A model generated the notes under the pieces. The model saw only the letters and a list, made by a program, of their open reading frames with translations. It did no database searches and was not told where the DNA came from. 64,000 bases of DNA from Nitrospinota bacterium (lineage in GTDB: Bacteria > Nitrospinota > Nitrospinia > Nitrospinales > JACRGP01), in the NCBI GenBank assembly GCA_016207065.1, contig JACQQK010000109.1:1666-65665 (forward strand), read 5' to 3'. Position numbers and translations under genes: made by a program. Shown here piece after piece: positions 9,372 through 56,006 of the stretch; the stretch's first letter is position 1, and the number at the start of each line of letters is the position of its first letter.

Positions 9372-9411
9372 CAAAATCTTTGATTTTCGGCCCAATAATC
9401 GCAAAAAAGTA

Positions 9412-12851: not shown

Positions 12852-12859
12852 ATACTACC

Positions 12860-13090
12860 TTAGAGCGTCTAACAAAATGAACCCCTTGGCTCGACCCTCA
12901 AATTACTCCCCTCCCTTGAGGGAGGGGGCTGGGGGAGGATGACCAGCGTGAACGCTGGATCCGACGCCGCCTCAGGCTGACGCCGGATCCATTACCGCCC
13001 CGGCGCAAGCGCGGGGCGGCATTGCCCACCGGGGGCGTCCCCGGTGTCATCGCCGTAGCGCCTCCGGGCGCCGGCCCGGCTTATTTTTTA
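12860..13090 (+). repeat. Mosaic repeat locus 3, beginning with the terminus TTAGAGCGTCTAACAAAATGAAC
   Basis: The first ~58 nt match 60853-60910 and the reverse complement of 10727-10784. 12935-13055 match 61030-61170. Ends in the hairpin + T-run module (13064-13089). Confidence 0.9.
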
Positions 13091-13229
13091 ACTTGCCGAC
13101 GGACAAAATGTGTTATACTTTTTAAAGATAGAAAGTCAATGATTTTCCTTCCGCCAATTTCGGAAACGCAGATTTGCTCCTTGCATCCTATTCGCCTCGA
13201 TTCCGTAACCCTCTGACGGAATATTCCCG

Positions 13230-32695: not shown

Positions 32696-33670
32696 TTATC
32701 CGGCCGGACTCATCACTTTCCGCAGGGTATAGCTGGTATCCACCAGTTGAAAACCGAGTTTCAGATAGAGGTTGTTGGCCTTGACGTTACGCAGTTGGGT
32801 CCCCACGTGAACAAAATCGAAATGGTCCCGCCGGGCCAATTCCAGGACCTTCAGCGTCAAGGCCTTGGCGACGTTTTTGTTCCGCGACTCGCGATGGCTG
32901 GCGAGGAGAATGATGTTTAGGATTCTCAATCCCAGTTCCCGGTTGCATTTTTCGCTGACGGAGTAAGAAACAAATCCGAGAATATTCCCGCTCTTTTCCG
33001 CCAAGAGGACGCGGTCGTCGGCGTTCTTCGCGAAAGAATCCTCAATCCAATTGGCATGCAGTTGGTCCGCCGCGGAGTCGGGGATTTCCGGGTCGGAATG
33101 GAACCGGTCGTAGATGAACGACGTGCAGGCGATGTGTTTCACGGCTTCCATGTCTTCGTCAAGGGGCTCCCGGACGGTCATCCCAAAGCCGTCGCCGCAA
33201 AATGCCGGGGCGTCTTTCAGGGAGAACGACAGGGTCAGCAAACCATCCACCACGTGATATCCGTTTCTTTGCAGGACGCAGATGGCAGGCAGGTCCGAGG
33301 CGTTCGCGCGGAAAAAAACATACCCGTAGGAATTCTTTTTGAAGTCGGTTTCCAGGGACCGGTATAAACGATCGATCCGGGCGGTTTGCGTTTCAAACAA
33401 ATCGCCGGCGGAGATCAGGAAGTTGATTCGGGCGGTTTTATACCCGATGTTCCGGGAATCCCAGGGCGAATCGTTCCACGAGGCAAGGCCGACCAGTTTT
33501 CCCCGCTCGGTTTCGGAAAATAACGGGCGCGGGTTGGGGGCGTCGCGGAGGCAACTCAAAAAATACTCCTCCAGCTTTTTTTCGCCAATCAAACGGCGGT
33601 AGTAATGAAAATGCTTCAGCGGGAAGCGTCGGGCGAGGAGTTCCAGGTCCCCGGGGTCAAAATCGTCCAT
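32696..33670 (-). CDS. Two-domain GNAT N-acetyltransferase (WecD-like)
   Basis: C-terminal GNAT core ...NKNVAKALTLKVLELARRDHFDFVHVGTQLRNVKANNLYLKLGFQ. ATG at 33670 preferred over the TTG at 33700. Confidence 0.75.
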   Translation of the reverse strand: MDDFDPGDLELLARRFPLKHFHYYRRLIGEKKLEEYFLSCLRDAPNPRPLFSETERGKLVGLASWNDSPWDSRNIGYKTARINFLISAGDLFETQTARIDRLYRSLETDFKKNSYGYVFFRANASDLPAICVLQRNGYHVVDGLLTLSFSLKDAPAFCGDGFGMTVREPLDEDMEAVKHIACTSFIYDRFHSDPEIPDSAADQLHANWIEDSFAKNADDRVLLAEKSGNILGFVSYSVSEKCNRELGLRILNIILLASHRESRNKNVAKALTLKVLELARRDHFDFVHVGTQLRNVKANNLYLKLGFQLVDTSYTLRKVMSPAG

Positions 33671-34691
33671 GTTCTTCCAGTATCGCGACAATCCGGTCAA
33701 TGCCTTGTCCGTCCGTCAGCCCCGCCCATTTTTGGGCCAACGCGCTCAACTTTTCCGGGTTGGCCGCGAGATCGTCCATGAGTCCGGAAAACGTTTTGCC
33801 CACCGCGCCGACCGTTTTGGCGCAGTTCAGTACGCCCCCGGCGCGCCCGTATTTTTCGGCGTTTTCCCTCTGGTGCGGGACCGCCGCGAACACGATGGCC
33901 GGCGCGCCGACAAGGGCCAGTTCGCTTAGCGTGCCGGCGCCCGCGGCGGACACGACGAGGTCCGCCTGGCCCATATATTTCGGCAGACAATCGGCCCCGC
34001 GCAAAATTTCAACATCCAGGTTCGACCGGGCCCATCTCTCCTTGACCGCTTCATGATTGGGACAGCCCGGGCCAAGGACCAAGGTCAAATCAAAATGGCG
34101 GGAAGAGTTCTCGAAATAGTCCAGGACCTTGACGGAAAAATTAGCGATGTCCGTCCCGCCAAAGGTAAGCAAAACTTTCCTGAGATGGCCGCGATACTTC
34201 CAGGAACCGGCATGGGGCAGGAAATCGGGGGAGGACATAAGATATTTTGGGCCCTTGTAGACCTTGCATCCCATTTCCGCAAATTCCGCATTGGACAGGG
34301 AGTTCCTTATGCCCTGGAACGCCAGGTCAAAATGGACGAATCTCCCCTCGGGAACGTCCATGCCCACATAAAGCGTTCCCGGAATTTTCGCCAAACCGGA
34401 CCAATAGGCGTCGGCCCAATCCCAATGGTCGATAATTAAAAACGCCGGCCGATGTTTCTCGACCCATTGGTTGAGCCGCGCAACTATTTCTTCCTCCCTT
34501 AACTCGTTGGGAAAAACCTCCAGCGGAAATCCTCCGCCTCGGACCAGGTCGGCCGAGGCGGCGTCCGCCCTGATAAGAAAACGCACGTCTTCCCGGCCTT
34601 TTCCGCGGAGGGCCTCGGCCAACCAAAGGGACTTATAAATATGCCCCATGCCAACCTGGAATCCGCCGTCAACTCTGATTCCAATTGTCAT
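33657..34691 (-). CDS. PseG/SpsG-type UDP-sugar hydrolase (GT28 C-terminal-domain family)
   Basis: MTIGIRVDGGFQVGMGHIYKSLWLAEAL..., FGGTDIANF..., VVSAAGAGTLSELAL... are colinear with my memory of Campylobacter PseG. ATG at 34691 preferred over the TTG at 34736. Confidence 0.75.
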   Translation of the reverse strand: MTIGIRVDGGFQVGMGHIYKSLWLAEALRGKGREDVRFLIRADAASADLVRGGGFPLEVFPNELREEEIVARLNQWVEKHRPAFLIIDHWDWADAYWSGLAKIPGTLYVGMDVPEGRFVHFDLAFQGIRNSLSNAEFAEMGCKVYKGPKYLMSSPDFLPHAGSWKYRGHLRKVLLTFGGTDIANFSVKVLDYFENSSRHFDLTLVLGPGCPNHEAVKERWARSNLDVEILRGADCLPKYMGQADLVVSAAGAGTLSELALVGAPAIVFAAVPHQRENAEKYGRAGGVLNCAKTVGAVGKTFSGLMDDLAANPEKLSALAQKWAGLTDGQGIDRIVAILEEHGRF

Positions 34692-34806
34692 AGGAGGGGG
34701 TACAAAGACATTTTGGAGAATCGTGGGACCGACCAAGATCGCAAGCCAAAATCCAGAAAAGACTTCCTAGCAGGTTGCAGAAAAAACCGCTTTTGGCCCC
34801 AAAATC

Positions 34807-34876
34807 GTCATGCCCGCGAAAGCGGGCATCCAGAAATCCCTTGGAAATACCAGATTCCCGCCTGCGCGGGAATGAC
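34807..34876. repeat. Pair of GC hairpins (ATGCCCGC-GAAA-GCGGGCAT and TTCCCGC-CTGC-GCGGGAA)
   Basis: Perfect 8-bp and 7-bp stems. They give the spurious peptide ...SFPRRRESGISKGFLDARFRGHDD in track ORF 34669..34878. Located between two genes of the glycan island. Confidence 0.8.
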
Positions 34877-34911
34877 AACCAGAGACCATAAAATAGTTTT
34901 TCAGCACCCTG

Positions 34912-36690
34912 TTAGACGTACTGCGACTCGACCGCGGGAAGATTGGAGAGAAATTTGTAATTGGAGTATCTGTTGTCCTTGTAATTCAAACTCTGGTCTT
35001 TCGCGATAAATTCGATCAGTTCCTCTATCCCTTCCTCTATGGAGATTCTCGGCTCATAAGCTATGGCGTTTTTGACCTTGTCGAAATAGACCCAATAATC
35101 CCGCGCGTCGGTTTTTCCGGGCGAGCAGACCATCTCGGCCGTGGGGATGAGGCGGACGACTTCCTTGCCCAAATCCTCGATCCGCAGGTTTTGCTCGTTG
35201 CTACCGATATTGAAAATCTCTCCCCGCACCTTTTCGATCGGCGCTTCGAGGCAGGCGACAAAGCCGTCGGCGACGTCCGCCACATGGACCATGGGGCGGA
35301 ACTGGTTCCCCCCATCGACATAAAACTTCCCCTCCTTGATCGCCTTGGCCACGAACAGGTTCAACACGAGGTCGAAGCGGGGCCTGGGCGACAAACCGTA
35401 AACCGTGCCCAAACGCAGAATCGTCGGCGAAAAATTTTCGTCCACCATCTCAAGGATCGCGTTTTCCGAATAAATCTTGCTTCGCGCATAGAGCGAGACG
35501 GGATTTAACGGCGAGGTTTCCGAAAGCTTTTCCGGGGACGCTCCATAGACGCTACAGGTGGACGAGAAAAGGAACCGGTTGATCTGGTGATGTTTGCAAA
35601 TGTCGGCCAGAAGCTTGGCCGCCAGGTAGTTGCTTTCGATGGTGAACCGGGAATCGATGGCGCAGGCGGGGTCGCCGACGATCGCGGCCAAATGGACCAT
35701 GGCGTCCATACCCCCGATCGCCGAAACCACTTCCTCGATATGACGGATATCGCCTTTGACCAGTTCGAAGTTTGGGTTGGAATAGAGTTCCCGTATGGGT
35801 CCGTCCCCATAGAGCAGGTTGTCCAGGACCCTCACCTTATAGCCTTTTTGCAACAACTTGCCACATAAGATCGAACCGATGTAGCCCGCGCCTCCCGTGA
35901 TCAATACATTTTTCACTTTGTCCTTGAAAATCACCTCGTCGTCGCCGACGAAAAACAACGTCGATTCCGGGTCCAGTTCGTCGTGAATGGCCAGGTCCTT
36001 GAGATGGTTGTCCGCGTCCAGGATGGGGACTTTGATTTCCCCCAAAGCGAGGGGGATTTTCAATTTGCTCAAACGGATTTTGGAGTCCACCAGCCGGAGC
36101 AATGCCTTCTTGGTAAGCCCTTGCAGTCCCGTGATGGGGTTTTTATTCATTATTTTCTCGACGGGCGTTTCGGCGTCATGGCCGTCGAGGATGGCGTCCC
36201 GAATGTCCCTTTCGGTGACCAATCCCAAAAACTTGTTTTTCTCGTCCGCCACCAAAACCAGGTTGAGGTTGATGGTATCCAGGATTTTAATGACCTTTTT
36301 AATCGTCGCGCCGGGCTGAACGATTATCTTCTTGAAATATTCCTTGCGAGATAAACTTTCGGTCCTGGTTTTTCTTTGGACCAGATGGACCGCCTTTATC
36401 TTCCCGGCTTTATCCAAAACCGGGACATATCCGGAAAAATCCTCGGGAAGGTTGGCCAATTCCCTCTCCTCGCCGACAGTCGCGGGGCCCTTATTCATCA
36501 CCGTCTCAACGGGGAAGTTGAGGTCTGTATTGCCCAACAGGGCCGCGCGGACATGGTGCATTTCAACCGTCCCAAGAAGCTTGCCGTGGGGATCCACCAC
36601 CGTGCCGAACAGGATGTCAGACTTGTTAAATTGTTCCAAGACTTGGAAAAGGGCGGTATGGGGAGCGAATTTAAGGAATTTTGCCGACAT
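34912..36690 (-). CDS. Fusion of four CBS motifs (two Bateman modules) to an extended-SDR NAD-dependent sugar epimerase/dehydratase
   Basis: N-terminal ~255 aa carry four CBS-like motifs (...GKLLGTVEMHHVRAAL, ...YVPVLDKAGKIKAVHL, ...LVADEKNKFLGLVTERDIRDAIL, ...VPILDADNHLKDLAIHD). Then VLITGGAGYIGS Rossmann motif and YARSK catalytic motif. Confidence 0.85.
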   Translation of the reverse strand: MSAKFLKFAPHTALFQVLEQFNKSDILFGTVVDPHGKLLGTVEMHHVRAALLGNTDLNFPVETVMNKGPATVGEERELANLPEDFSGYVPVLDKAGKIKAVHLVQRKTRTESLSRKEYFKKIIVQPGATIKKVIKILDTINLNLVLVADEKNKFLGLVTERDIRDAILDGHDAETPVEKIMNKNPITGLQGLTKKALLRLVDSKIRLSKLKIPLALGEIKVPILDADNHLKDLAIHDELDPESTLFFVGDDEVIFKDKVKNVLITGGAGYIGSILCGKLLQKGYKVRVLDNLLYGDGPIRELYSNPNFELVKGDIRHIEEVVSAIGGMDAMVHLAAIVGDPACAIDSRFTIESNYLAAKLLADICKHHQINRFLFSSTCSVYGASPEKLSETSPLNPVSLYARSKIYSENAILEMVDENFSPTILRLGTVYGLSPRPRFDLVLNLFVAKAIKEGKFYVDGGNQFRPMVHVADVADGFVACLEAPIEKVRGEIFNIGSNEQNLRIEDLGKEVVRLIPTAEMVCSPGKTDARDYWVYFDKVKNAIAYEPRISIEEGIEELIEFIAKDQSLNYKDNRYSNYKFLSNLPAVESQYV

Positions 36691-37028
36691 GTCCGTTTTT
36701 ACCCGAACCTTGGATGGCGCATATTATTTATCGGCGGACGTGGCCCGAGGGTTAAGGTTGAAAAACTCAAAACTCGAAAACCGGGGGTATCTTATTGGCA
36801 AGAACTTATGGCACGCGCGGCCGACACGGGCCAACGTCCTTGATCTTCCGGCCCATTTTATGGGTCATTATATGAGTTGCCTTCCCGGCGTGTCAAGACG
36901 AACGTGACCCCTCTCGAAATTAGTCCCTTCGGCATTTCCCGCCAATGGTATAATTTCGCGGAGTTCGTAGAAAAGTCCAACCCGGTCCCGCCGGAAAACC
37001 GGCGGAACCCATTCCCCATTGCTGAAAA

Positions 37029-38042
37029 ATGAAAATTGACACGATCGATCTGGAAAAAGAAGTTCTGATCATTGCCGAAATCGGCAACAATCACGAAGGC
37101 GATTTCTCCCTGGCGAAAAAAATGATCTCCGCCGCGGCCAGGGCCGGAGCCCATGCGGTGAAATTCCAAACCATCGTACCCGAAAGGTTTGTAGCGCCCA
37201 GCCAGAAAGGCGCATTCGACCTTTTCTCGAAGTTCCGGTTCAATTACGAGCAGTTCGCCCAATTGAAGGAAACGGCGGACGGCGAGGGCGTCGTGTTTTT
37301 GTCCACGCCTTTCGATATCGACAGCGCGCGGTTTTTGAATTCATTGGTCCCGGCCTTTAAGATCGCCTCCGGGGACAATAATTTCTGGCCGCTCATCGAG
37401 ACGGTCGCCAGAACGGGGAAACCCATCCTGCTGTCCGCCGGGATGGCCAATTCCAACGAAATTCTGCGCGCCAAATGGTTCATAGAAAACCTCCTCGGGC
37501 CGGACAAGACCCAAAGCTCCCTGGCCGTTCTGCACTGCATTTCCCTGTATCCAACCCCTCCAGGCAAGGCCCATCTCCTTTCCATCCCGGCCCTCAAGCA
37601 AAGGCTGGGCGTCACGGTCGGTTACTCGGACCATACGATAGGGACCGACGCGGCCGTCCTGGCCGTTGCCTTGGGAGCCCGCGTGATCGAAAAACATTTC
37701 ACGCTCGACAAGAATTATTCCGATTTTCCCGACCACCGGATTTCCATGGACCCCAGGGACCTGGCCCAACTGGTTGAAAAAATCGCCCAGGCGGGGGAGC
37801 TTCTGGGGACCGCAAGCCCCGGCGTCGGGGCCGAGGAATTGGAGGTCGCCAAGGTCGCCAGGCGTTCCATCGCCGCCAGCCGCGATTTGGCCAAGGGGAC
37901 GCGTCTCGAATGGGACCATCTGACGTGGCTGAGGCCGGGAAACGGTCTTGCGCCGGGAGAGGAAGGCAAGGTCCTTGGGAAAATCTTGAAAAGTCCGGTC
38001 CCGAAGGGGAATCGTATCTTGCCGGAAGACTTGGAGAACTAA
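37029..38042 (+). CDS. Nonulosonic acid synthase (NeuB/PseI/LegI family) with C-terminal SAF domain
   Basis: LIIAEIGNNHEGDFSLAKKMISAAARAGAHAVKFQT..., ...GYSDHTIGTDAAVLAVALGARVIEKHFTLD..., and a C-terminal RSIAASRDLAKGTRL SAF-like segment. Confidence 0.9.
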   Translation: MKIDTIDLEKEVLIIAEIGNNHEGDFSLAKKMISAAARAGAHAVKFQTIVPERFVAPSQKGAFDLFSKFRFNYEQFAQLKETADGEGVVFLSTPFDIDSARFLNSLVPAFKIASGDNNFWPLIETVARTGKPILLSAGMANSNEILRAKWFIENLLGPDKTQSSLAVLHCISLYPTPPGKAHLLSIPALKQRLGVTVGYSDHTIGTDAAVLAVALGARVIEKHFTLDKNYSDFPDHRISMDPRDLAQLVEKIAQAGELLGTASPGVGAEELEVAKVARRSIAASRDLAKGTRLEWDHLTWLRPGNGLAPGEEGKVLGKILKSPVPKGNRILPEDLEN

Positions 38043-38093
38043 ACCCGGCAGGGCGTTCCCCGGTCGAGGGGAAGATGGCGTTTCGGCGGAGCG

Positions 38094-38681
38094 TTATCGC
38101 GCCTTGGCTCGCGCGTCGCGCCTGGCGTTCTTTTTGCGCGGCAATCGCGCGAGGTCTTCCCGCAAGATGCCGAATCTTTTAACGTCCAAATATTTCCCCG
38201 ATAGAAACATGGCTTGCCTTAGCGTGCCCTCGTGCGTCCATCCTTGCTTTTTCAGTATCGACTCCATGGCGGGATGGACGGTGCCCGCCTCCAGCCGCCG
38301 GAGATTGAGGACCTCGAAAGCGTGCCGGGCAAGCAACTGCCAGGCTTCCCGGCCGTAGCCTTTGCCCTGCGCGTCTTCCTTGCCGATCATGATGGACAGT
38401 TCCCCGCTCCGCGCGATCCAGTTGATCGAACTCAATAGAATATTTCCGATGTGCCGCTCCCCCTTTTTTTCCACAATGGCCAGCAACAGATTCTTTTTCC
38501 CGCCGCAATCGTTCAGGTAGCGGGCCAGATCGCCTTCGGTGGTGGGCCACGACAGCCGGTTCGAATACCGGTTGATTTTATAATTATTCAACCATCGGAG
38601 ATATTCTTTTTTATCGTCGCTTTCCAATACGGGCCTTAAATAAATTTTCTTCCCTTCAATAAAGACGATCTGTTTTTTCAT
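38094..38681 (-). CDS. GNAT N-acetyltransferase (RimJ/RimL-like, PseH/SpsD-like role plausible)
   Basis: ATG at 38681 overlaps the upstream stop (ATGA). KKIYLRPVLESDDKKEYLRWLNN..., ...IGKEDAQGKGYGREAWQLLARHAFEVLNLRRLEAG... Confidence 0.8.
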   Translation of the reverse strand: MKKQIVFIEGKKIYLRPVLESDDKKEYLRWLNNYKINRYSNRLSWPTTEGDLARYLNDCGGKKNLLLAIVEKKGERHIGNILLSSINWIARSGELSIMIGKEDAQGKGYGREAWQLLARHAFEVLNLRRLEAGTVHPAMESILKKQGWTHEGTLRQAMFLSGKYLDVKRFGILREDLARLPRKKNARRDARAKAR

Positions 38682-39778
38682 GAGCGATGCCGACGGCTTA
38701 GTTGATTCTCGATTAATTGACAAATGGCCCGAACCGAGGCGTTTCTTTTTTCGGGACCTAAAAAATAATTTCTATTTTGCGCCTCAAAGGTCTTTGAATT
38801 CAAGAGGTTTTGCAGATCGGAGGGACGTTTCAGAATATTTATGCCGTAGGGCAGTTTCAACCCTTTGGTTTCGTGAGGCTGATAGCTGACGCAATTGAGG
38901 TCCAAGAGATGGGCCTCGACCAGGAGCATGGAGGTCATGCCCACGATCAGGTCTGAAGCCGCCAGGAGTTCATAAACATTCGCGCCCGTGAAATCCGACA
39001 AAACCGCCCGTCCGCCCGGGGTCGCTTCTTTCCATGAGCCGGAATTTTCTCGAGGATGCCTTTTGACGACCAGTTTTATGGGATGGGGTAAAGAGGAGCG
39101 ATTCAACGCCTCAATCAAATCGCGCATAACCATGTTTTCGTCGTAACCCCATTTTTCCGCTCCATGGTCGAGGGCGATGGGTTGGGACAAAAAGCTAACG
39201 ACAAAGTCGTTTTGCGAAAACCCCAACTTGCTTCTCAAGTGAAGGGGGCCGGCTTTGTCCAGGGTGTTTTCTTTTATGTCCCATAAACGCTCCAAATACG
39301 GGTTGCCGGTGATTTGGATGGAACTTTCCGGGAACCCCTCATCGACCAACCCTTCCTTCATGCTTTCGTCGGCGACGCAAATGACGTTGGGCAGACAGTC
39401 CAGGGTCTCCCTGGAATCCGAGCTGTAGCGTATGCGGTAGTTGCTCCAAAAGTCCAAAATGGAAATGGTGAAAATCCCCAGCGACCGCGCGGCCGCGATA
39501 AACCGGCCCTCGATGTTTCCCAACCGGCTGTCCCGCAACGAGGAGCCGGAGATCAGCGCTTTGGGGCCGGCGTCTTGCAAAACGCGCAAGATCGTTTTTT
39601 CGTCATAAGAGCCGTCCACGATCCGGAAGGGAATGTTTTCCTGACGTAATGTTTCCTGTCCATGATCGGCAACAAAGCACTGGAAGAGAATCCGGCGGGA
39701 CCGGATTTCCCGGATGACCGGAAACAGCGCGTTGAAGCTTCCCGGTTGGTTCCCGACAAAAACGCAATCCGCCTTCAT
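38678..39778 (-). CDS. Uncharacterised GT-B-fold-like protein (candidate glycosyl/nonulosonate transferase)
   Basis: ATG at 39778 overlaps the aminotransferase stop (ATGA). The C-terminal pattern ...KLVVKRHPRE...VYELLAASDLIVGMTSMLLVEAHLLDLNCVSYQP resembles nucleotide-sugar-binding halves of GT-B enzymes. No family recognised with certainty. Confidence 0.5.
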   Translation of the reverse strand: MKADCVFVGNQPGSFNALFPVIREIRSRRILFQCFVADHGQETLRQENIPFRIVDGSYDEKTILRVLQDAGPKALISGSSLRDSRLGNIEGRFIAAARSLGIFTISILDFWSNYRIRYSSDSRETLDCLPNVICVADESMKEGLVDEGFPESSIQITGNPYLERLWDIKENTLDKAGPLHLRSKLGFSQNDFVVSFLSQPIALDHGAEKWGYDENMVMRDLIEALNRSSLPHPIKLVVKRHPRENSGSWKEATPGGRAVLSDFTGANVYELLAASDLIVGMTSMLLVEAHLLDLNCVSYQPHETKGLKLPYGINILKRPSDLQNLLNSKTFEAQNRNYFLGPEKRNASVRAICQLIENQLSRRHRS

Positions 39779-41061
39779 TGACCGTTCAATTGGGACAAGA
39801 TGTCCAGCCCGCCGAAAACTTTGTGGAAGGCCTCGGAGATCGCGTCCAGATCGCCCTCGGAAAGTTCGTGCTTGCAGGGTTCGAAGAGGAACAAATCCTC
39901 CTCGTGCATGCGTTCGGCCGCGGGACAAAGCCCCTTTTCATAATTCAGCTTGCCGTCATGAAACGCGCAGGTAAATGGACATCCCTTTTCCCCGTAACCG
40001 ATGCGTTTTTGGTAAATCGGTTGCAAGTACAAAGGCTTGACGTATCCCGCCCCAAGGGGCACCCCCTCCGCCTGCAACGCCTTCACGACCAGATTCCGGG
40101 GGACGGCGCGATGGGGCCGGTATTTCATGGCGTACACATAATAAACGTGCCGGCAACCGGGCCTGACAACGGGGGTTTGTAGCCCCTCGATATCCGACAA
40201 CCTGCGGGTCAGGCCGTCGGCGATCGCGATCCGCGAGGCCACCAGGCGGTCGATCTTTTTCAGTTGTTCGATGCCGATGGCGGCTTCGATCTCCCCCAGG
40301 CGGAAATTGAAACCGATCATGTTCGTCAAACTGGCCGCCTCCTTCTGCTCGATCGCGGCCTCGGCATGGTTGCGGATCATGCACAACCGTTCGGCCAGTC
40401 CGTCGTCGTTGGTAACGCATACGCCGCCCTCGCCGGTATGGATGTGCTTGTGATAATTCAGGCTGAAAACGCCGATATCGCCGATCGTGCCCGCCAGGCG
40501 GCCATCGTATTCCGCCAGGGGGGACTGCGCGTTGTCTTCGATTATCTTGATGCCGCGCTTGCCGGCTATTTCCCGGATACGGTTATAATCCGCGGGATGT
40601 CCAAAAATATTGGAGACCATCAGGGCCTTGGTGTTTTTGGTGATCCGCTCCTCGATGGAATGGGGGTCCATGTTGAACGTGTCCGGATCGATATCGGCGA
40701 ACACGGGCAGGGCGTTAAAAACCAAAATCGCCGCGGCGCTGGCGGACATGGTGTAGGGGGACACGATCACCTCGTCGCCGGGTCCCGCCCCGACGGCCCC
40801 GACGGCCGCGGCCAGACAGGAAGTCGCGGAGTTCATGGTCACGGCATGCTTGACGCCGAACCTTTCTCGCCAAGCTTGTTCGAAAGCCTGGACCTGCCGG
40901 CCTCCATGGAAATTCTTGCCCCGTGCCCCGACAAAATCCGAAAGGACGCCCGACTGCAGGACCTTGTTGACGGCCTGGATCTCCGCTTCGTCGATATGAT
41001 TGTATTTTCGGAACGGTTTGTCGATCGCGGGTTTTCCGCCCAAGATGGCCAGCGCGCTCAT
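39775..41061 (-). CDS. DegT/DnrJ/EryC1/StrS-family PLP sugar aminotransferase (PseC/LegC/SpsC-like)
   Basis: MSALAILGGKP..., ...VIVSPYTMSASAAAI..., ...FSLNYHKHIHTGEGG... (PLP Lys region), 428 aa. Confidence 0.88.
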   Translation of the reverse strand: MSALAILGGKPAIDKPFRKYNHIDEAEIQAVNKVLQSGVLSDFVGARGKNFHGGRQVQAFEQAWRERFGVKHAVTMNSATSCLAAAVGAVGAGPGDEVIVSPYTMSASAAAILVFNALPVFADIDPDTFNMDPHSIEERITKNTKALMVSNIFGHPADYNRIREIAGKRGIKIIEDNAQSPLAEYDGRLAGTIGDIGVFSLNYHKHIHTGEGGVCVTNDDGLAERLCMIRNHAEAAIEQKEAASLTNMIGFNFRLGEIEAAIGIEQLKKIDRLVASRIAIADGLTRRLSDIEGLQTPVVRPGCRHVYYVYAMKYRPHRAVPRNLVVKALQAEGVPLGAGYVKPLYLQPIYQKRIGYGEKGCPFTCAFHDGKLNYEKGLCPAAERMHEEDLFLFEPCKHELSEGDLDAISEAFHKVFGGLDILSQLNGQ

Positions 41062-42056
41062 GCTTTACCCCGGATGGATTGTTCTTTGATTCGGACGCAG
41101 GTCTCCAGAGTCCCGAATGCCGATTGGCCGTCCGAGGCCAACGGGGCGCCATCGAGCAAACTCCGGTAAATTCCATCCATGACGTTATACTGGTAACGGT
41201 CCATGTCCTGGCCGGCCGGCAAGTCTTCTTCTTCAAGGACGCGGCCATTATTACGATCGCCGGAACCGCGCGCCCGGAAGAGTTGGATTTTCCAACCATT
41301 GTCCAATATCTTCACCCGGCCGCGTTCGAATAACATATCGATTTCCAGCAACCGGAGAAATTCGTCCGAGCTGGCCTGAAAACACGCGTCAAACGATTCG
41401 AATCGCAACAGGAAGTCAAGGTGAGGGTCTTCCGCGCCGATGCCTTTGTCGCGGATGAAGAGGGTTTCCCGCTCGGGACCGAAAAAATAATGAAACAAAT
41501 CGATGGCGTGCGAGGCGTAGTTGAACAATCCTTTGGAATACCAACACTGGGCCGAGGCCGGAGGGCCCAAGGAACCGCCGTCTATCGTCTTTTTCGCTCC
41601 GATGATTCCCGGGTCCCATCGACGGATGTAATTCACCGCTATTTTATAATTATTTTGGCTCAGGTTCAACATCTCCCGGGCTTCGTCAAGGGAATAGGCC
41701 AGCGGCTTTTCCATTAAAATCAAGGCGGCGCGGGACGGATGGACTTCTTTCAGGGAAGAGAGGTGCAGGCGGGTCGGGGTGCAAATGGACACGCAATCGG
41801 CGGCGCGCCCACCGCTTTTCATCAGAGCGTCGAAACTCGGGTACGCCTTGACCCCGGTATGCCGCTCAAAATCGGCGCGTTTTTTCTCGTCGATGTCCAC
41901 GCCGCCGACCAACTCGAAACCGGGGTGCTCCCGGTAAGCCTTGGCGTGCGAAAAAATCCGGCCCGGCCCAGAGTCCAGGTCGTAACGGAACCCGATGTTC
42001 CCCAGCCCCACCACCGCCGCGGTCAACCTCTTTTTACCGGAGTCGCCCATGGTCAC
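41058..42056 (-). CDS. Gfo/Idh/MocA-family NAD(P) oxidoreductase
   Basis: LTAAVVGLGNIGFRY Rossmann N-terminus, 332 aa. GTG at 42056 overlaps the upstream stop, and an alternative ATG lies at 42050. Confidence 0.8.
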   Translation of the reverse strand: MTMGDSGKKRLTAAVVGLGNIGFRYDLDSGPGRIFSHAKAYREHPGFELVGGVDIDEKKRADFERHTGVKAYPSFDALMKSGGRAADCVSICTPTRLHLSSLKEVHPSRAALILMEKPLAYSLDEAREMLNLSQNNYKIAVNYIRRWDPGIIGAKKTIDGGSLGPPASAQCWYSKGLFNYASHAIDLFHYFFGPERETLFIRDKGIGAEDPHLDFLLRFESFDACFQASSDEFLRLLEIDMLFERGRVKILDNGWKIQLFRARGSGDRNNGRVLEEEDLPAGQDMDRYQYNVMDGIYRSLLDGAPLASDGQSAFGTLETCVRIKEQSIRGKA

Positions 42057-42784
42057 TCGGATTTTTGGCGGACATGGGTGTTGATCTTGACCAATTCCGG
42101 ACGCGCGTCCAGGAAACCGAGGATGTCGTCGAAGGAAAAAGCGGGCTGGCCCGGATACAGGTTTTCGAAAATTATTTTTATCAGCTTGTAATCTTCCGGC
42201 GTGTCGAGGGTCAAACGCCAGTTGGGGCGGATTTGGTCCGCGGCGGGTTCCAGGCTAAACAAGGAGAACCGGGCGGGATTCCGGTGAATGTATCGCGTCA
42301 CATGCTCCTGGTCCAACGGGTCGTCCGCGGCGGCGTTTACTTTTTGCAGGAGATTCGCGGAAAATACCTGCGCGATCATTCCGTGCGGATAACCGGGCTT
42401 AAGGATGTTGCTGACGAAGTCATAATTATTTTGCTTGTAAATATCGACCATCCGGTCGACCAGGACGGGGTCCAAAAGCGGGTTGTCTCCGGTCAATTCC
42501 ACGATGATATCTGTCTTTGACGCGACGGCGCACTCCAAGACCCTTTGCAGGACGTTATTTTCGGAACCGCGATGGCAAGGGACGCCCAGCGATTCGCACA
42601 GGTCGGCGATCGCCTGGTCGGCGGGGTTCGCCGTGGTGGCCATCCAGACGCCGTCCAGAGCGCGGCATTTCCTCATCCGTTCGACCAGCAATTCCAACAT
42701 CGGTTTCCCGCAAGCCGGCAACAATACCTTGCCCGGCAGACGCGTGGACGCCATCCTGGCCTGTATAATAGCGTTGGTTTTCAT
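42053..42784 (-). CDS. Acylneuraminate cytidylyltransferase-family enzyme (SpsF/PseF-like CMP-nonulosonate synthetase)
   Basis: MKTNAIIQARMASTRLPGKVLLPACGKPMLELLVERM... is the SpsF-type N-terminus. 243 aa. Confidence 0.85.
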   Translation of the reverse strand: MKTNAIIQARMASTRLPGKVLLPACGKPMLELLVERMRKCRALDGVWMATTANPADQAIADLCESLGVPCHRGSENNVLQRVLECAVASKTDIIVELTGDNPLLDPVLVDRMVDIYKQNNYDFVSNILKPGYPHGMIAQVFSANLLQKVNAAADDPLDQEHVTRYIHRNPARFSLFSLEPAADQIRPNWRLTLDTPEDYKLIKIIFENLYPGQPAFSFDDILGFLDARPELVKINTHVRQKSE

Positions 42785-42951
42785 TAATAAAATTTTATTT
42801 TGAGAGGGCCATTATATCCTATAGTATCCTTGAGGACTTTAATCTTATTAGATGGCTTAAACAATTTAAACATAATTTTTAATCCTCTGGATCCCCTGGT
42901 TTTTGCTCCTGATCGGGCGGCGATTTTCCGTGCATTCTGGACAATACGCAT

Positions 42952-44907
42952 ATGAAGACGTTGGTTTGGGTAGGCGATCTCAATGATCTGAAAGCTCTTC
43001 TTTTAGCGGAGAGTAAGGAAGGGCGTCCTCCCCCCGAGCCGCTTTATGTCGCCGGAGATCCCCTTGTCATCGAGGAACTTCTCCGGAACAATCTTTCCTG
43101 TAATGGAATAAACGCTTTTTTTTCCAGGGCGGAATTCATGGAGTGCGAGGAGTTGGCCCTGTCCTTGGCCCGGGAATGGTCGAAGGACGAAGACGGGTCG
43201 GACTTCACCCGGGTAAACGGGATCCCTCTCAGCCAGGCAATCATGCGGTTTGTTTATTACCATTTCGCCTATGCGCTGAGGGCCGTCCATGGCATTGCCA
43301 ATCTGCTCGAGAAAGAACGTCCCGGCCAGGTCCGCGCCGCGAAACAGAACGATTTGTCCGGCGGTTTTTACGGCATTCATGGCCGCGATCTCCGCAAGGA
43401 AATTCTCAAGCTCTTGCAACCCCGGTACGGGTACGAACTGATCTGGACCGAAAACGCGGAGTCCGTCGCAAACGTAGCGCCCGCCCCCATGGGCGGATTG
43501 ACCCGGCTGATCAAAACTCTGGTCATCCTTGGGGTGGACGGTTGTAAAACCGCTTTCCGCAAGGCCTTCGACCGCGGGGCTCCGGTAAACATATTGGTCC
43601 CCTCTGCCTCGGACATCGGTTACCTGCGCCCGGCGGTGGTGCGAAACGTCTTGCGGGCCGGCGAAAACGTAAATCTGAGCTACCTATTCAACGAATTGAA
43701 TTGTTACCTTCACCCGCGGCTGACGCATCGGTCTCTCGATAAATATAAAACTCCCGAAACCGGAAAAACGGTCCGCGAACTGGCCGGGGCGATTGCCGGA
43801 ATGAAGGAGAAAACCAGGAACCGTCTCGGCGATAAAAGATTTGTCTTTAGGGGGCTCCCTTTTTGGCCGATCGTGGAAAATTTTTTCAATGAGTTTTTCG
43901 ACGCCCTGGCGCCTCAATACATCGAATTCGCGGTCCTGGCGGAAGAGGCGGTCAAAGACGATGTCCATCTCGTCGTGATCACCACGAATACCATGCCCTA
44001 CCATATTCTGCTCACCTTGCTGGGTAAACGCCACCAGGTTCCCGTCCTCCACATCCCGCATGGGTTCAGCGACGGCATAATCAAGGACGGGAAGTTGATC
44101 CAGGGCGGGGAAAGGAATCTCCTCAACTTTCCATTCCTCTACGACTTGGAGGTCGTCGGCTTGAAATACAACGTTAATTTGCGCGTCAAGAAAGGCATCG
44201 ACCCTAAGAAGCTGATCCTGGCGGGAATCCCTCAGTATGAAGTTCAGCTGGACGATAAAAAAAGCAAACGGACCGCGGCCCGGAAAAAGCTCGGTTTGGA
44301 CCCCGGGGAAGAGGTCGTCGCCTTCGCGACGGAGCGGTCGGCGGACCGGATGATGAACTCGGCTTTGCTGGACGGTTTTGAAACAGTCCGCCTGTATAAG
44401 TCGCTCATAAGCGTCATGGAGCGGCGAGCCGGCTCCCGTCTGGTCTTCAAGTTCAGGGTCGGCGATGAATTGATCGCCTTGACCAGGGAATTGGCCGCAA
44501 AAAGCGGCGGCAAAAACGTTTTAGTCCTCGCCGAATCCCTGCAGGATTTGTTATGGGCGTCGGACGTGGTCATGATCATCAATTCAAGCGTCGGGGTGGA
44601 GGCTCTCTATTACGACGTTCCCGTGGTCCAGATCATGACGCCTTCGGGAATGCCGGCCATCCAGTTGGAAGCGGAGGGCGCGGCCATCGGACTTTACGAC
44701 CCGCAAAGTTTGCCCGCCATTCTTGACCGGTTAAGAAACGATCCGGAATATAGGGAAGCGCGGCTGACCGCTCAACGGGAATTCCTGGACAAAAACCTGA
44801 TTTCCCGAACGGGGGGCGCGAAACGAATGGGGAAAATAGTCGCCGAAATCGCCTTGGCGGGAAAAAATGGAAAACCAGCGGCCGATTTTTCCCGGGTTGC
44901 GCTTTAA
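42952..44907 (+). CDS. Large uncharacterised protein with GT-B-like C-terminal half (candidate surface-glycan transferase)
   Basis: 651 aa. The C-terminal ...EVVAFATERSADR...NVLVLAESLQDLLWASDVVMIINSSVGVEALYYDVPVVQI shows the same pattern as 38678..39778. Divergent from the cytidylyltransferase operon across an AT-rich spacer. Confidence 0.5.
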   Translation: MKTLVWVGDLNDLKALLLAESKEGRPPPEPLYVAGDPLVIEELLRNNLSCNGINAFFSRAEFMECEELALSLAREWSKDEDGSDFTRVNGIPLSQAIMRFVYYHFAYALRAVHGIANLLEKERPGQVRAAKQNDLSGGFYGIHGRDLRKEILKLLQPRYGYELIWTENAESVANVAPAPMGGLTRLIKTLVILGVDGCKTAFRKAFDRGAPVNILVPSASDIGYLRPAVVRNVLRAGENVNLSYLFNELNCYLHPRLTHRSLDKYKTPETGKTVRELAGAIAGMKEKTRNRLGDKRFVFRGLPFWPIVENFFNEFFDALAPQYIEFAVLAEEAVKDDVHLVVITTNTMPYHILLTLLGKRHQVPVLHIPHGFSDGIIKDGKLIQGGERNLLNFPFLYDLEVVGLKYNVNLRVKKGIDPKKLILAGIPQYEVQLDDKKSKRTAARKKLGLDPGEEVVAFATERSADRMMNSALLDGFETVRLYKSLISVMERRAGSRLVFKFRVGDELIALTRELAAKSGGKNVLVLAESLQDLLWASDVVMIINSSVGVEALYYDVPVVQIMTPSGMPAIQLEAEGAAIGLYDPQSLPAILDRLRNDPEYREARLTAQREFLDKNLISRTGGAKRMGKIVAEIALAGKNGKPAADFSRVAL

Positions 44908-44993
44908 AAAGACGGTTATTCGGCGCGTTCATTTGACGGGAAAAGCTTGAAATGCGAATCCCCCCGTCGGTTAAGCGGGGATGGGGCGTCCTT

Positions 44994-46559
44994 TCATCCG
45001 GCATTTCTCACAAAACGTCCGGCCCATCGGCCCAGAATTGGGTGGGTCCCTTCCATAAACCGCCGATACTCCTCGGGCAGAGGTTTTCGCCAAAGTAGCA
45101 GGGACAAGAAAACTCCTATAAAAACGAGAAGGCTCAACAACACGTGGACATGACCCATCGCCGACAGCGCCAGGGACGGCGCGACCGCCGCGAAAGACAA
45201 AAGAAAGCACTTGCCGGCGAAAAGAAAAATAGGGCGTACCCTGATAGCCTGGCAAATGCATAGGAATTGTCGAAACGCCATATAAAGCGTGGCCAATCCG
45301 GTGGCGCCAGCCGCCCCCATCTCTCCGTAAAACGGGATCAAGGCAATATCCAGGACGACGTTCAAAGCGCTGCCCTCGAGCGACGCCTTTAAAACGATGT
45401 CCCTTCTCTGAAGCACATACAAGGCGGACGACGAAAAACCGGACCCCAAAACCGCGCCAGCGGTCATGAAGACAAGATAAAACGACAAGACGTCGCCGCT
45501 TTTGACAAACTGTTCTCCATAGACAAAACCGATCAAGGGACGGGAATAAAACAGGGCGAAAATGTAAATGGGGATGGCGATAAAAAGGGTGAAACCGAGG
45601 ATCTGCCGCCAGGACTTGGACAGTCCCGCGGGACCCTCGCGCGAAAATGTCTCGGAAAATATCGACAGGGCCAGGGGACCGATGCCCGCCAGCACAAAGG
45701 TCAGCATGCCGGCGACGCCGGTCGCCAGGTGGTAATATCCGATGCGAACGGCGTCTACCTGGAAATAATTCATGAACGCCACGTCGCTTTGCGTCATCAG
45801 CCCAAAACTGAGAATCCCCACAAGATAAGATACGCCGGCCAATTTGCGCGCGTCTCCCCAGTCCGCGCGCAGGACGGTCCCGGCCAGGTAGGGTCTGGCC
45901 AGATAGCCGTAAACGGCGACGGTTGCGCCTACCGACAGGATATAGGCATACAATATGCCCTGGATACCCCGATCGAGAAAAATAAAAACCGACAAAAAAG
46001 CGAGGTTGAGCAAGGAACACAGCGTTTCCGCCATGGAGGTGATCTTGTACTTCAAACATGTCATGAACAGGGAGCTTAAAATGGAATTGACCGCGGTCAG
46101 GAAAAAGTAAAGCAGGACCGGCAGGCGGTAGACCAGCAGTTCCGGCATGCGAATCAATGCAAAGTAGTAGGGAAGCGCATAATATAGGACGAGACAGAAT
46201 GTCAGGGCGGAAACGACCCGCAACGACAAGATACGCCGGGCGGCGTAACGCGACTGGCCCAGACTGGGATCCGCGACCGCCAATTCCGGAAGTTTCTTGT
46301 TCAACGCCGTTTCCAGACCGAATGAGTTCAACAGACGGGCCAGCGCGGGGATGACCAGAATGGTCGCGTAAATTCCCAGACGCTCTTTTCCCAAATAGCG
46401 GGTGATCGAAATGGAAATACCGAACAATAAAACCTGGACGGACATTTTGCCGAAAATGTTCCAGGAAATGTTGGTTAGAAAACTCTGAAAGAAGGGCAAG
46501 GGAGGCGTCTTTTTTTGATAAAATCCGCTTATCGGACGGAGAAACCCTCTCCGGAACAA
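44994..46559 (-). CDS. MOP-superfamily polysaccharide flippase (Wzx-like)
   Basis: About 12-14 TM helices. The N-terminal ...NISWNIFGKMSVQVLLFGISISITRYLGKERLGIY is typical of Wzx. Apparent TTG start. Confidence 0.8.
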   Translation of the reverse strand: MFRRGFLRPISGFYQKKTPPLPFFQSFLTNISWNIFGKMSVQVLLFGISISITRYLGKERLGIYATILVIPALARLLNSFGLETALNKKLPELAVADPSLGQSRYAARRILSLRVVSALTFCLVLYYALPYYFALIRMPELLVYRLPVLLYFFLTAVNSILSSLFMTCLKYKITSMAETLCSLLNLAFLSVFIFLDRGIQGILYAYILSVGATVAVYGYLARPYLAGTVLRADWGDARKLAGVSYLVGILSFGLMTQSDVAFMNYFQVDAVRIGYYHLATGVAGMLTFVLAGIGPLALSIFSETFSREGPAGLSKSWRQILGFTLFIAIPIYIFALFYSRPLIGFVYGEQFVKSGDVLSFYLVFMTAGAVLGSGFSSSALYVLQRRDIVLKASLEGSALNVVLDIALIPFYGEMGAAGATGLATLYMAFRQFLCICQAIRVRPIFLFAGKCFLLSFAAVAPSLALSAMGHVHVLLSLLVFIGVFLSLLLWRKPLPEEYRRFMEGTHPILGRWAGRFVRNAG

Positions 46560-46709: not shown

Positions 46710-47000
46710 ATGGCCGGCAGTTTTAACGTTTTAATCGTGACGGAATTCAACAACCTTGACGAAAAGTCAAAACGGGAAATTTTCGAAAGACTGCAAGAGC
46801 ATGGACTGGAGAAAATTCCCACCCTGGCCTCCTGCGAGGCTTGGGAAATCAAAGTGGAGGCAAAAGACGAGGTTGAAGCCAAGGACAAGGCAATACAAAC
46901 CGTCCATAACGTTTGCCGGACCTATCCCTTCGAACTCCGCATGGTGGCGCAATGCGGGACGGGGCAAATCCTGCGCCGGAAGAAAATATTCGAGCCGTAA
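46710..47000 (+). CDS. Hypothetical small protein (96 aa)
   Basis: AGGAG 7 nt upstream of the ATG. Balanced composition (MAGSFNVLIVTEFNNLDEKSKREIFERLQEHG...). No family recognised. Confidence 0.5.
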   Translation: MAGSFNVLIVTEFNNLDEKSKREIFERLQEHGLEKIPTLASCEAWEIKVEAKDEVEAKDKAIQTVHNVCRTYPFELRMVAQCGTGQILRRKKIFEP

Positions 47001-54602: not shown

Positions 54603-55028
54603 TTAATTTTTTTCCGCCTTGAGCGCCAACTGCATGAAAAAATGCAAGAATGATCGCGTGCTTTTATCTCGTATTTTCTTGAAGGCAACCAGGAGTTCCT
54701 CTTCTTCCGGCGACAAAAGCCCGGGAGCATGATGGATCGACTCTGGTTTGGCCGATATTCCAGCCATTTGTCCGTTTTTTGGTTTTCCCGCATCGATAAG
54801 GGACCAACTCTCCTCGCTGAGATACCCGCCCAGATACAATAAGTATTCGTATTTCACTTTTAGATGGGGAGCTATCGCCCGCAGGATTTCCGGGTTTGGC
54901 TGTTTTCTTTTTTTATTGATGATGTAAGAAATCTCCGAGCGGCTAACGCCGGAGAGGATCTCCAGCTTCCGGAACGACATTCCGGGAATTTCTTTAATCC
55001 TGCGTTTGATAAATTCAGCCAAGTCCAT
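54603..55028 (-). CDS. XRE-family HTH regulator
   Basis: MSFRKLEILSGVSRSEISYIINKKRKQPNPEILRAIAPHL HTH_3 pattern. The ~70-aa C-terminal extension is of unknown function. Confidence 0.8.
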   Translation of the reverse strand: MDLAEFIKRRIKEIPGMSFRKLEILSGVSRSEISYIINKKRKQPNPEILRAIAPHLKVKYEYLLYLGGYLSEESWSLIDAGKPKNGQMAGISAKPESIHHAPGLLSPEEEELLVAFKKIRDKSTRSFLHFFMQLALKAEKN

Positions 55029-55088
55029 GCCATATTCTGTGTCTACGGTTTACGGTTGTAAACAGCGGCCACGAGGAAATGACAAAAT

Positions 55089-55110
55089 ATGGTTAACATA
55101 CAACAACCAT
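55089..55110. promoter_or_regulatory. Operator-like palindrome ATGGTTAACATACAACAACCAT
   Basis: GGTT-N12-AACC inverted repeat in the XRE/methyltransferase divergent spacer. A second copy lies 86 bp away. Confidence 0.45.
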
Positions 55111-55174
55111 CTCCCGGTAAGAGGCGATCACTTTTATTCAAATTAATCAATATGTTAAATATAGACGTCGAATT

Positions 55175-55195
55175 TGGTTGACAAATAACAACCAT
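55175..55195. promoter_or_regulatory. Operator-like palindrome TGGTTGACAAATAACAACCAT overlapping a TTGACA -35-like hexamer
   Basis: Same GGTT-N12-AACC architecture as 55089-55110. TTGACA lies at 55178-55183. Confidence 0.45.
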
Positions 55196-55264
55196 ATATC
55201 GTATGGTTCGCATTTGCTAACCATTGATCCGGTTTTGCCTTTCCGCAAGATCCTTTTTTCATCC

Positions 55265-55984: not shown

Positions 55985-56006
55985 TTGTTCGCGCCGTATC
56001 TTCTCA

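Follow-up and report, generated by a model that had tools for sequence, protein, structure and literature searches.

The stretch of DNA analysed here (the window) comprises 64,000 nucleotides of contig JACQQK010000109.1, from an uncultured Nitrospinota bacterium. Positions 32696-46559 hold a real locus of 11 genes in four transcription units, by which a nonulosonic acid (NulO), a nine-carbon surface sugar resembling sialic acid, is made, activated and probably exported. NulO loci of this kind are already well known; the unusual part of this one is that its key enzymes come from unstudied subfamilies, so that its product may differ from the textbook sugars. The source genome measures 2.96 Mb in 190 contigs and is 79.6% complete. 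A preliminary description, made from the letters of the window, had proposed a NulO surface-glycan locus at this place. Profile searches recovered all eleven open reading frames (ORFs) at the coordinates and in the families that it had given, and a NeuB with SAF domain, a cytidylyltransferase, an aminotransferase, acyltransferases, release-type enzymes and a flippase are all present.

Three genes form a minus-strand operon that runs from 36690 to 32696. They encode a 592-aa fusion of CBS domains with an extended short-chain dehydrogenase/reductase (CBS-SDR; 34912-36690), a PseG/SpsG-like nucleotide-sugar hydrolase of GT28 fold (33657-34736) and, as the last gene, a WecD-like GNAT N-acyltransferase (32696-33700). 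Upstream of this operon, in the divergent intergenic region, lies a perfect sigma-70 consensus promoter on the minus strand, TTGACA-18-TATAAT (36867-36896; 12/12 hexamer matches), which is a consensus match only. The 337-aa NeuB-family synthase is encoded on the plus strand (37029-38042). A second minus-strand operon, from 42784 to 38094, starts with an SpsF-like cytidylyltransferase (243 aa; 42053-42784) and continues with a Gfo/Idh/MocA NAD-dependent oxidoreductase (332 aa; 41058-42056), a long-form DegT sugar aminotransferase of the pyridoxal-phosphate type (428 aa; 39775-41061), a 366-aa GT-B-fold protein of the NeuC/WecB superfamily (38678-39778) and a RimL/PseH-like GNAT (38094-38681; 195 aa from the ATG at 38681). 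Its genes overlap at GTGA, ATGA, ATGA and ATGA, as had been described, and number five with the 366-aa gene, which is placed between DegT and the GNAT. The gene of a 651-aa GT-B-fold protein (42952-44907, plus strand) diverges from this operon, and that of a 521-aa Wzx-like flippase of the MOP family (46559 to 44994, minus strand) converges on the 651-aa gene.

The synthase covers profile positions 1-239 of 241 of the NeuB family PF03102 (235.6 bits, cut-off 22.1) and has a SAF domain at residues 278-336 (32.9 bits, cut-off 21). It stayed below both NCBIfam equivalog cut-offs (TIGR03569, 295.1 versus 399.65 bits; TIGR03586, PseI, 253.8 versus 340.25 bits), and its nearest solved structures were PseI (166 bits), NeuB (157 bits) and SpsE (135 bits). 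A tree was calculated from 88 homologs, in which the NCBIfam cut-offs, applied to tree representatives, took the place of characterised PseI, LegI and NeuB sequences. The source NeuB and three family relatives formed a clade (Shimodaira-Hasegawa-like approximate likelihood ratio test, 100), which sits among sequences from many phyla with a conserved cassette of cytidylyltransferase, Gfo/Idh/MocA, DegT, SDR, WecD-like GNAT and NeuB. NeuBs from other families of the same order pass TIGR03569 at 439-455 bits and belong to a separate clade of 43 members (support 99). Six sampled members of that clade, from the same order and several other phyla, passed the model (439-526 bits) and one, L077, just failed it (379 bits), while sampled members outside it scored 282-301 bits. 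The earlier placement in the NeuB/PseI/LegI family thus stands by its two domains, but the protein fails both equivalog cut-offs and lies apart from the clade passing TIGR03569; by its position in the tree it belongs to an uncharacterised synthase subfamily. It was the only NulO synthase found in the ~80%-complete genome. A second NeuB match (contig C174, 45.8 bits) was rejected as a DAHP synthase with a ferredoxin-like domain.

Comparison with related genomes revealed a mosaic history. The island is flanked by housekeeping genes, namely cytochromes, DUF1264, Lcl_C, a methyltransferase and an SBF transporter on the left, and a peptidyl-prolyl isomerase (PPIase), a Maf nucleotide pyrophosphatase, an MFS transporter, a SurA-like protein and HflX on the right. 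The same-genus genome G001 shares the left operon at 91-95% identity (95% for the WecD-like GNAT), together with residues 1-29 of NeuB. G004 (contig JAJDBB010000010), from a different genus of the family, keeps the left flank in synteny at 59-71% identity, and its interval between the SBF gene and NeuB is occupied by DegT, SPASM radical SAM, UDP-sugar dehydrogenase, AsnB-like and hexapeptide acetyltransferase genes and by one for a 660-aa protein without an assigned family. The right flank is syntenic at 42-72% identity in G003 and in the metagenomic contig L001, and in both of them NeuB (63-65% identity) directly adjoins the flippase (45-56%). Downstream of the flippase they have the same 96-aa ORF and the Maf, MFS and SurA-like genes, with the PPIase kept in G003. 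Because they occupy the same chromosomal site, with identities comparable to those of flanking housekeeping genes in other genera of the family (55-71%), NeuB and Wzx are read as a core inherited within the family at a fixed place, between the SBF gene and the PPIase/Maf/MFS/SurA genes. The tailoring genes, by the same comparison, differ between genera, in the manner of O-antigen or capsule loci. A GT-B protein of ~650 aa was present in each island examined, and the operon of CBS-SDR, PseG-like protein and WecD-like GNAT occurred only in the source genome and its one same-genus relative.

The 96-aa ORF mentioned above lies at 46710-47000 on the plus strand of the window, between the Wzx and PPIase genes, and has no known domain. 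Two other genera of the family have it in synteny at 71-72% identity, so it is probably a real conserved gene.

In the source genus, 6.8 kb (38094-44907) separate NeuB from Wzx. The order of all five genes of operon 2, hereafter the five-gene cassette, is kept in an unrelated contig (L118), where the 366-aa copy is 43% identical. Small rearrangements of the cassette were seen in L027 (Thermodesulfobacteriota), in L072 (Dehalococcoidia) and, next to NeuB, on the P0129 contig; it was near NeuB in four of the five other places where it was seen. No homolog of the 366-aa signature gene was found at E <= 1e-10 when 119 other genomes of the phylum, each representing a species and 57 with a completeness of 90% or more, were searched. 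Horizontal acquisition of the cassette is well supported, since its signature gene is missing from all 119 genomes and its gene order recurs in unrelated contigs. Although the 651-aa gene belongs to the same inserted stretch, a distant homolog of it exists in the island of a relative. The possibly horizontally acquired locus of the preliminary description thus shrinks to the five-gene cassette, while NeuB and Wzx are syntenic in the family.

That description had also counted GC by hand on single 60-nt lines. Three of the four counts were right (45%, 45% and 60%), but 8001-8060 has 66.7% GC, not 72%. Such spot checks are weightless, because GC scatters among single lines with a standard deviation of 9 points, and a GC of 45% or lower is reached by 10% of all lines. 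As a whole, the island has 54.85% GC, 2.9 points lower than equal-sized genome windows (57.7 ± 1.7%; 4.5% of them as low). Its mean GC at third codon positions (GC3) was 0.699 versus 0.766 ± 0.027 in blocks of ten neighbouring genes (1.2% as low) and its codon-usage distance was 3.54 versus 1.88 ± 0.50 in ten-gene blocks (0.4% as far), both against a reference set biased upward by a gene caller that selects on GC3. The composition of the island does differ from the genome average, as had been suspected, modestly in GC and as a clear outlier in codon usage. No tRNA genes were found in the window, no integrase or transposase among the annotated neighbours of the island, and no flanking or terminal repeats around it beyond chance-level short matches. 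Two other segments of the window, 9001-10000 and 55001-56000, have 47-47.5% GC, below any island stretch; they are poorly coding or short-ORF regions.

The CBS-SDR (Epimerase, 158.5 bits; CBS, 53.4 bits) scored far under the NCBIfam cut-offs for LegB (TIGR04180, 91.6 versus 475 bits), RmlB (92 versus 365 bits) and PseB (TIGR03589, 34.8 versus 407.75 bits). Its motif, STCSVYG, lacks an acidic residue behind the catalytic Thr. The corresponding motif is STSEVYG in SDRs that neighbour canonical-type synthases, STDEVYG in RmlB-type enzymes at other places of those loci, and SSSMVYG in the SDRs of the conserved six-gene cassette. The best PDB match to the SDR domain was 6vo6/6vo8 (166.7 bits over the full length, about one-third identity; next match 106 bits), with NTNSGYG at the STCSVYG position, likewise without an acidic residue after the catalytic Thr. 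6VO6/6VO8 is probably Cj1427, a GDP-heptose C4-dehydrogenase, an identification based in part on the deposited molecule name. Cj1427 oxidises GDP-heptose at C4 without dehydration (PMC10680097). We propose, from motif and match, that the CBS-SDR may be an NDP-sugar C4-dehydrogenase rather than a 4,6-dehydratase. CBS-SDR fusions are widespread. No PseB/PglF-type dehydratase was found in the ~80%-complete genome, where the best Polysacc_synt_2 score was 66 bits. An RmlB dehydratase on contig C72 could act in trans.

Another contig (C63:730-5327, L128) encodes a LegB/RmlB-like 4,6-dehydratase (RmlB, 334.6 bits; LegB, 191.6 bits) beside a B12-binding radical SAM protein and a SPASM-type radical SAM protein. 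NulO islands of related genera (L001, L004) also contain radical SAM genes like these, so that the C63 cluster may act in tailoring this sugar or a related one.

The PseG-like protein matched TIGR03590 over the whole profile at 134.4 bits (cut-off 153.55), Glyco_tran_28_C at 50.4 bits and MurG at 39.9 bits. Its likely start is MTIGIRVDGG at 34691, and an N-terminal GxGH motif is visible in the translation. The WecD-like GNAT has 334 aa as the longest ORF and probably starts a little further downstream (Acetyltransf_1, 47.7 bits; best NCBIfam match WecD, 65.9 bits, below the cut-off). Homologs stand directly upstream of NeuB in at least 15 loci of the same synthase clade, and the enzyme is proposed to acylate the 4-amino group of an NDP-sugar.

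The first enzyme of the five-gene cassette matched CTP_transf_3 at 124.7 bits (cut-off 22.6). Its PseF score was 24.7 versus 205.7 bits, its best PDB match was 6oew, 'Cytidylyltransferase' (142 bits), and KdsB matches did not exceed 47 bits; it is proposed to be a CMP-NulO synthetase, as judged from these similarities. The Gfo/Idh/MocA protein (GFO_IDH_MocA, 56.7 bits) was most similar in NCBIfam to the archaeal UDP-GlcNAc 3-dehydrogenase (66.4 versus 450 bits), and its gene always adjoins the cytidylyltransferase gene in related cassettes. The aminotransferase (DegT_DnrJ_EryC1, 294.6 bits) was below the NCBIfam cut-offs of PseC (227.7 versus 423.5 bits) and LegC (182.6 bits). Its PDB matches were 8gyh (212.6 bits), GDP-perosamine synthetases (183 bits), WbpE (134 bits) and PseC (116 bits). 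The RimL/PseH-like GNAT (Acetyltransf_3, 65.5 bits; PseH, 22.3 versus a cut-off of 93.1 bits) has the same cassette position in L118. We found no literature on TIGR04396, 8GYH or 6OEW.

The C-terminal ~60 residues of the DegT protein (39775-39960) form a four-cysteine extension, GCPFTC...GLCPAAE...EPCKHE, which is absent from enzymes of PseC/LegC length. The long form seems to be shared by 8gyh (439 aa, full-length match).

The fourth cassette protein, of 366 aa, had been described as an unknown GT-B-like protein; this is corrected here to a fixed member of the biosynthetic cassette from the 2-epimerase superfamily. In Foldseek, its AlphaFold2 (AF2) model (pLDDT 89.5) was closest to NeuC (5zlr, E 2.3e-13, TM 0.63; 5xvs), and then came dozens of 2-epimerases for UDP-GlcNAc and UDP-diacetamido sugars, before the first glycosyltransferase. 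A profile of 21 homologs matched the 2-epimerase 4neq (E 3.5e-5), with an invariant His-Pro-Arg aligned to the HPR motif. The single sequence reached 25 bits on Pfam Epimerase_2 (cut-off 30.6). Because of these fold and profile matches and the fixed place of its gene in a translationally coupled cassette, we propose that it may be a divergent nucleotide-sugar 2-epimerase, possibly a hydrolysing one. Pfam hints on homologs (TagF, polysialyltransferase) had raised a CMP-NulO transferase as a candidate, which was rejected as the main reading on the same grounds. No homolog was found in a relative's island. The only strong Epimerase_2 gene in the genome (contig C149) is a non-hydrolysing WecB.

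Taken together, these results favour a variable, mosaic surface-glycan locus that would make a NulO, activate it with CMP and pass it to transferases, a reading that we hold at a probability of about 70%. In the proposed route, an NDP-N-acetylhexosamine, possibly GDP-linked, would be oxidised at C4 by the CBS-SDR, transaminated at C4 by DegT and N-acylated by one of the GNATs. The sugar would then be released from its nucleotide by the PseG-like and/or the NeuC-like protein, with or without inversion at C2, condensed with phosphoenolpyruvate by NeuB and converted to the CMP-sugar by the SpsF-like enzyme. Likely consumers are the 651-aa GT-B protein together with Wzx, which would give a lipid-linked, exported glycan, and the three Maf-type flagellin glycosyltransferases from other contigs. 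The product is probably a 5,7-diamino-type NulO whose stereochemistry and 9-deoxy state cannot be assigned; the earlier caution that the sugar cannot be named by eye holds.

Several observations weigh against this reading. None of the island proteins reached any NCBIfam equivalog cut-off for pseudaminic acid (Pse) or legionaminic acid (Leg) enzymes, so that their roles rest on family-level similarity. The enzyme set is redundant, with two GNATs and two release-type enzymes, and the Gfo/Idh/MocA protein has no assigned step. With ~80% of the genome complete, the assembly could be missing a second synthase or a dedicated dehydratase, and the LegB/RmlB-like dehydratase on C63 could act in trans. 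The link to Maf is one of genome co-occurrence only, the maf and flagellin genes being on other contigs. Finally, no initiating transferase, polymerase or ligase was found in the island, which leaves the Wzx-dependent product undefined.

An ordinary pathway is the alternative that survives best. The locus would then make Leg5Ac7Ac, by a route of the Bacillus subtilis sps or Campylobacter leg/ptm type, or Pse5Ac7Ac, and its low scores would reflect phylogenetic distance; we regard this as possible, at odds that are clearly against it. All six functional classes are there (SDR, DegT, GNAT, PseG-like/NeuC-like, NeuB and cytidylyltransferase), and the JGI automatic names of close synthase homologs include 'N,N'-diacetyllegionaminate synthase'. 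The dehydratase on C63 could be counted for it as well. The synthase, however, is ~105 and 87 bits under the NeuB/LegI and PseI cut-offs, whereas the NeuBs from other families of the same order pass and fall into a different, well-supported clade. The island SDR also lacks the acidic residue of the SDRs beside canonical-type synthases and is most like 6vo6, and the genome search gave no dehydratase of the PseB/PglF type. The preliminary description had held that this enzyme set defines Pse/Leg pathways. The classes are indeed present, but the statement went too far for a set that meets no equivalog cut-off and combines an SDR without the acidic residue with an uncharacterised synthase subfamily.

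Among the closest described systems is the sps pathway of B. subtilis, in which SpsM/C/D/G/E/F produce CMP-Leg with the PseG-like SpsG and the GNAT SpsD (PMC7439481), so a PseG-like protein plus a GNAT does not imply Pse. This pathway, which likewise uses SpsF, has DegT, GNAT, PseG-like GT28-fold, NeuB plus SAF and SpsF-type cytidylyltransferase classes in common with the island. SpsM, however, is a 4,6-dehydratase of the PglF/CapD type, whereas the island SDR is CBS-fused, lacks the acidic residue and resembles a C4-dehydrogenase; the island also adds genes for a Gfo/Idh/MocA protein, a NeuC-like protein and a second GNAT. Among the PDB matches of the island NeuB, SpsE ranks behind PseI and NeuB. 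The sps target is the spore crust, and that of the island would be a Gram-negative surface and/or flagellin.

Leg clusters of Campylobacter, Plesiomonas and Vibrio (PMC4481668, bioRxiv 10.1101/2022.03.25.485807) resemble the island in other respects. In described clusters the cytidylyltransferase and Gfo/Idh/MocA genes, LegF and PtmF, are adjacent (PMC4481668), and a tandem-CBS module occurs there as in the island, whose protein of 2-epimerase fold would take the LegG/NeuC position as release enzyme. The adjacency and the CBS module, which recall LegF-PtmF-PtmE (PMC4481668, PMC7874193), speak for an ordinary route. In the Leg clusters, though, CBS is fused to a nucleotidyltransferase (PtmE/LegX), whereas in the island it is fused to the SDR. 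The PtmE/LegX marker, a tandem CBS plus nucleotidyltransferase (bioRxiv 10.1101/2022.03.25.485807), was not found in the island, to which the search was confined, and this counts against an ordinary route. LegH is a left-handed beta-helix protein, whereas the island acetyltransferases are GNATs; no island protein reached the LegB or LegC cut-offs, and the island synthase does not fall into the clade passing the NeuB/LegI model. A further resemblance to the Leg clusters is that the island SDR and DegT are nearest to enzymes acting on GDP-linked sugars, 6vo6 being probably such an enzyme. Cj1427, if it is indeed this entry, has no CBS domains and serves capsular heptose modification, not NulO synthesis.

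An environmental cluster offers a further comparison. The Leg-related cluster of Candidatus Kuenenia stuttgartiensis has two legF homologs, a deacetylase and a formyltransferase, and its authors stated that genomics alone cannot separate Pse from Leg (bioRxiv 10.64898/2026.04.20.719630). Compared by description only, this environmental NulO cluster shares duplicated cytidylyltransferases and tailoring genes with L027, whereas the island has one cytidylyltransferase, no deacetylase and no formyltransferase. In L027, a Thermodesulfobacteriota metagenome-assembled genome, a related NeuB is followed by formyltransferase, polysaccharide deacetylase and AsnB-like amidotransferase genes before the five-gene cassette (11024-14503). 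This order downstream of NeuB resembles the deacetylase/formyltransferase arrangement of Ca. Kuenenia (bioRxiv 10.64898/2026.04.20.719630).

A bolder extension of the favoured reading can be put forward only tentatively, and we consider it rather unlikely. The synthase subfamily might mark a widespread, unstudied NulO pathway, with the cytidylyltransferase, Gfo/Idh/MocA and DegT enzymes and SDRs without the dehydratase acid residue, which would start by C4 oxidation instead of 4,6-dehydration. Its product would be an undescribed NulO, for example a 5,7-diacylamido-3,5,7-trideoxy (9-hydroxy) nonulosonate, possibly made via GDP-linked intermediates. A six-gene cassette of SpsF-like, Gfo/Idh/MocA, DegT, SSSMVYG SDR, WecD-like GNAT and NeuB genes was present in loci L017-L030, L036-L040, L044, L048 and L056, from various phyla, and a search up to ~10 kb from these cassettes revealed no release gene of the PseG or NeuC type. 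In the many related loci without a PseG/NeuC gene, the Gfo/Idh/MocA protein might release the sugar by NAD-dependent oxidation-elimination.

It is doubtful that the locus serves two sugars, a NulO from NeuB, the left operon and the cytidylyltransferase, and a 2,3-diacetamido-2,3-dideoxy hexose from the Gfo/Idh/MocA, DegT, GNAT and 2-epimerase-fold proteins. The model for this would be WbpB/WbpE/WbpD/WbpI of Pseudomonas aeruginosa, the route to UDP-ManNAc3NAcA, which unites a Gfo/Idh/MocA protein, a DegT protein, an N-acetyltransferase and an Epimerase_2-fold enzyme in one pathway. The four classes correspond one-to-one to those of the island; UDP-GlcNAc 3-dehydrogenase is the best NCBIfam match of the oxidoreductase, and UDP-2,3-diacetamido-2,3-dideoxy-glucuronate 2-epimerases of the WbpI type rank high among the fold matches of the 366-aa protein. 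In addition, L027 has, beside the cassette, a further complete set of cytidylyltransferase, oxidoreductase, DegT, SDR, GNAT and NeuB. Such a division, however, would leave the NulO branch of the island without an aminotransferase, yet the WecD-like GNAT needs an amino sugar. The cassette always starts with a CMP-type cytidylyltransferase, which has no role in a UDP-sugar pathway, and it accompanies NeuB, as in four of its five other occurrences. Its acetyltransferase is a GNAT, and its DegT is nearer to C4-aminotransferases such as perosamine synthetase than to WbpE.

The acceptor of the sugar was considered next to the pathway. The Wzx protein is supported by Polysacc_synt_3 (52.6 bits, cut-off 23) and Polysacc_synt (37.1 bits, cut-off 28.2). 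The 651-aa protein has no Pfam match of its own; its AF2 model (pLDDT 89.6) shows a GT-B fold with long insertions, and Foldseek returned a mix of 2-epimerases, MshA and TagF that does not separate transferase from epimerase. Its family has 641 representatives, and of 35 members 23 matched Glyphos_transf (TagF), 22 Capsule_synth (KpsC/S) and 19 Glycos_transf_1. The protein is homologous to one of 673 aa in a relative's island (21% identity over 607 aa, E 1e-12). On the strength of the family-level Pfam matches and the context, it is a candidate transferase that may use the activated sugar.

Six flagellin matches were found in the genome, along with three Maf/MptE-like genes, C11:6747-8615 (L124), C143:7122-8525 (L126) and C94:1077-1979 (L125), for proteins of 622, 467 and 300 aa. 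Two of the three had weak matches to the Maf N-terminal domain, one of the genes lies behind a methyltransferase gene, and all three are away from the island. In many bacteria, proteins of the Maf type transfer NulO to flagellin. A second SpsF-like cytidylyltransferase (C135:1869-3123, L111; 257 aa; CTP_transf_3, 93.7 bits), 28% identical to that of the island, is encoded immediately upstream of a flagellin gene that the end of the contig truncates, an arrangement that hints at a flagellin glycosylation locus beyond the assembled contig. Given the single NeuB, the three Maf-type genes, the six flagellin matches and this second cytidylyltransferase, flagellin is a likely NulO acceptor. The conserved pairing of NeuB with Wzx and the GT-B protein suggest a flippase-dependent surface glycan alongside it. 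The list of acceptors considered before (lipopolysaccharide or capsule, S-layer, flagellin, pili) is thereby narrowed towards flagellin and a Wzx-dependent glycan.

The same genes could mean that the island serves flagellin glycosylation only, the Wzx and GT-B genes belonging to an unrelated neighbouring glycan. We think this unlikely: NeuB and Wzx are directly adjacent and co-conserved in three related genomes, every island examined also has the ~650-aa GT-B protein, and no maf or flagellin gene lies within the window. Flagellin glycosylation by Maf is moreover cytoplasmic and requires no flippase.

That the NeuB homolog is another phosphoenolpyruvate-dependent aldolase, in a locus for a non-NulO sugar, is very improbable: although it is below both equivalog cut-offs and we know of no characterised member of its clade, it has a full-length NeuB domain plus SAF, its nearest structures are PseI, NeuB and SpsE, the one further NeuB-like hit of the genome search is a DAHP synthase with another domain make-up, and the co-located cytidylyltransferase, aminotransferase and acyltransferases suit NulO chemistry.

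Sialic-acid-like sugars govern how phages, predators and hosts perceive bacterial surfaces and flagella, and their chemistry is known almost only from pathogens. The combination of synthase and SDR described here misfits the Neu, Leg and Pse templates of annotation pipelines, and the uncharacterised combination of synthase, SDR and oxidoreductase is the part that deserves follow-up. If the product were plain Leg or Pse, the locus would be an ordinary though nicely mosaic example; if it were a new NulO, a pathway would be added to a short list, together with new enzymes for CMP-activated sugars. For this environmental phylum, which is related to nitrite oxidisers, the locus represents a serotype-like variable glycan site with a conserved core of synthase and flippase, into which a tailoring and activation cassette of five genes, portable between phyla, appears to have been inserted.

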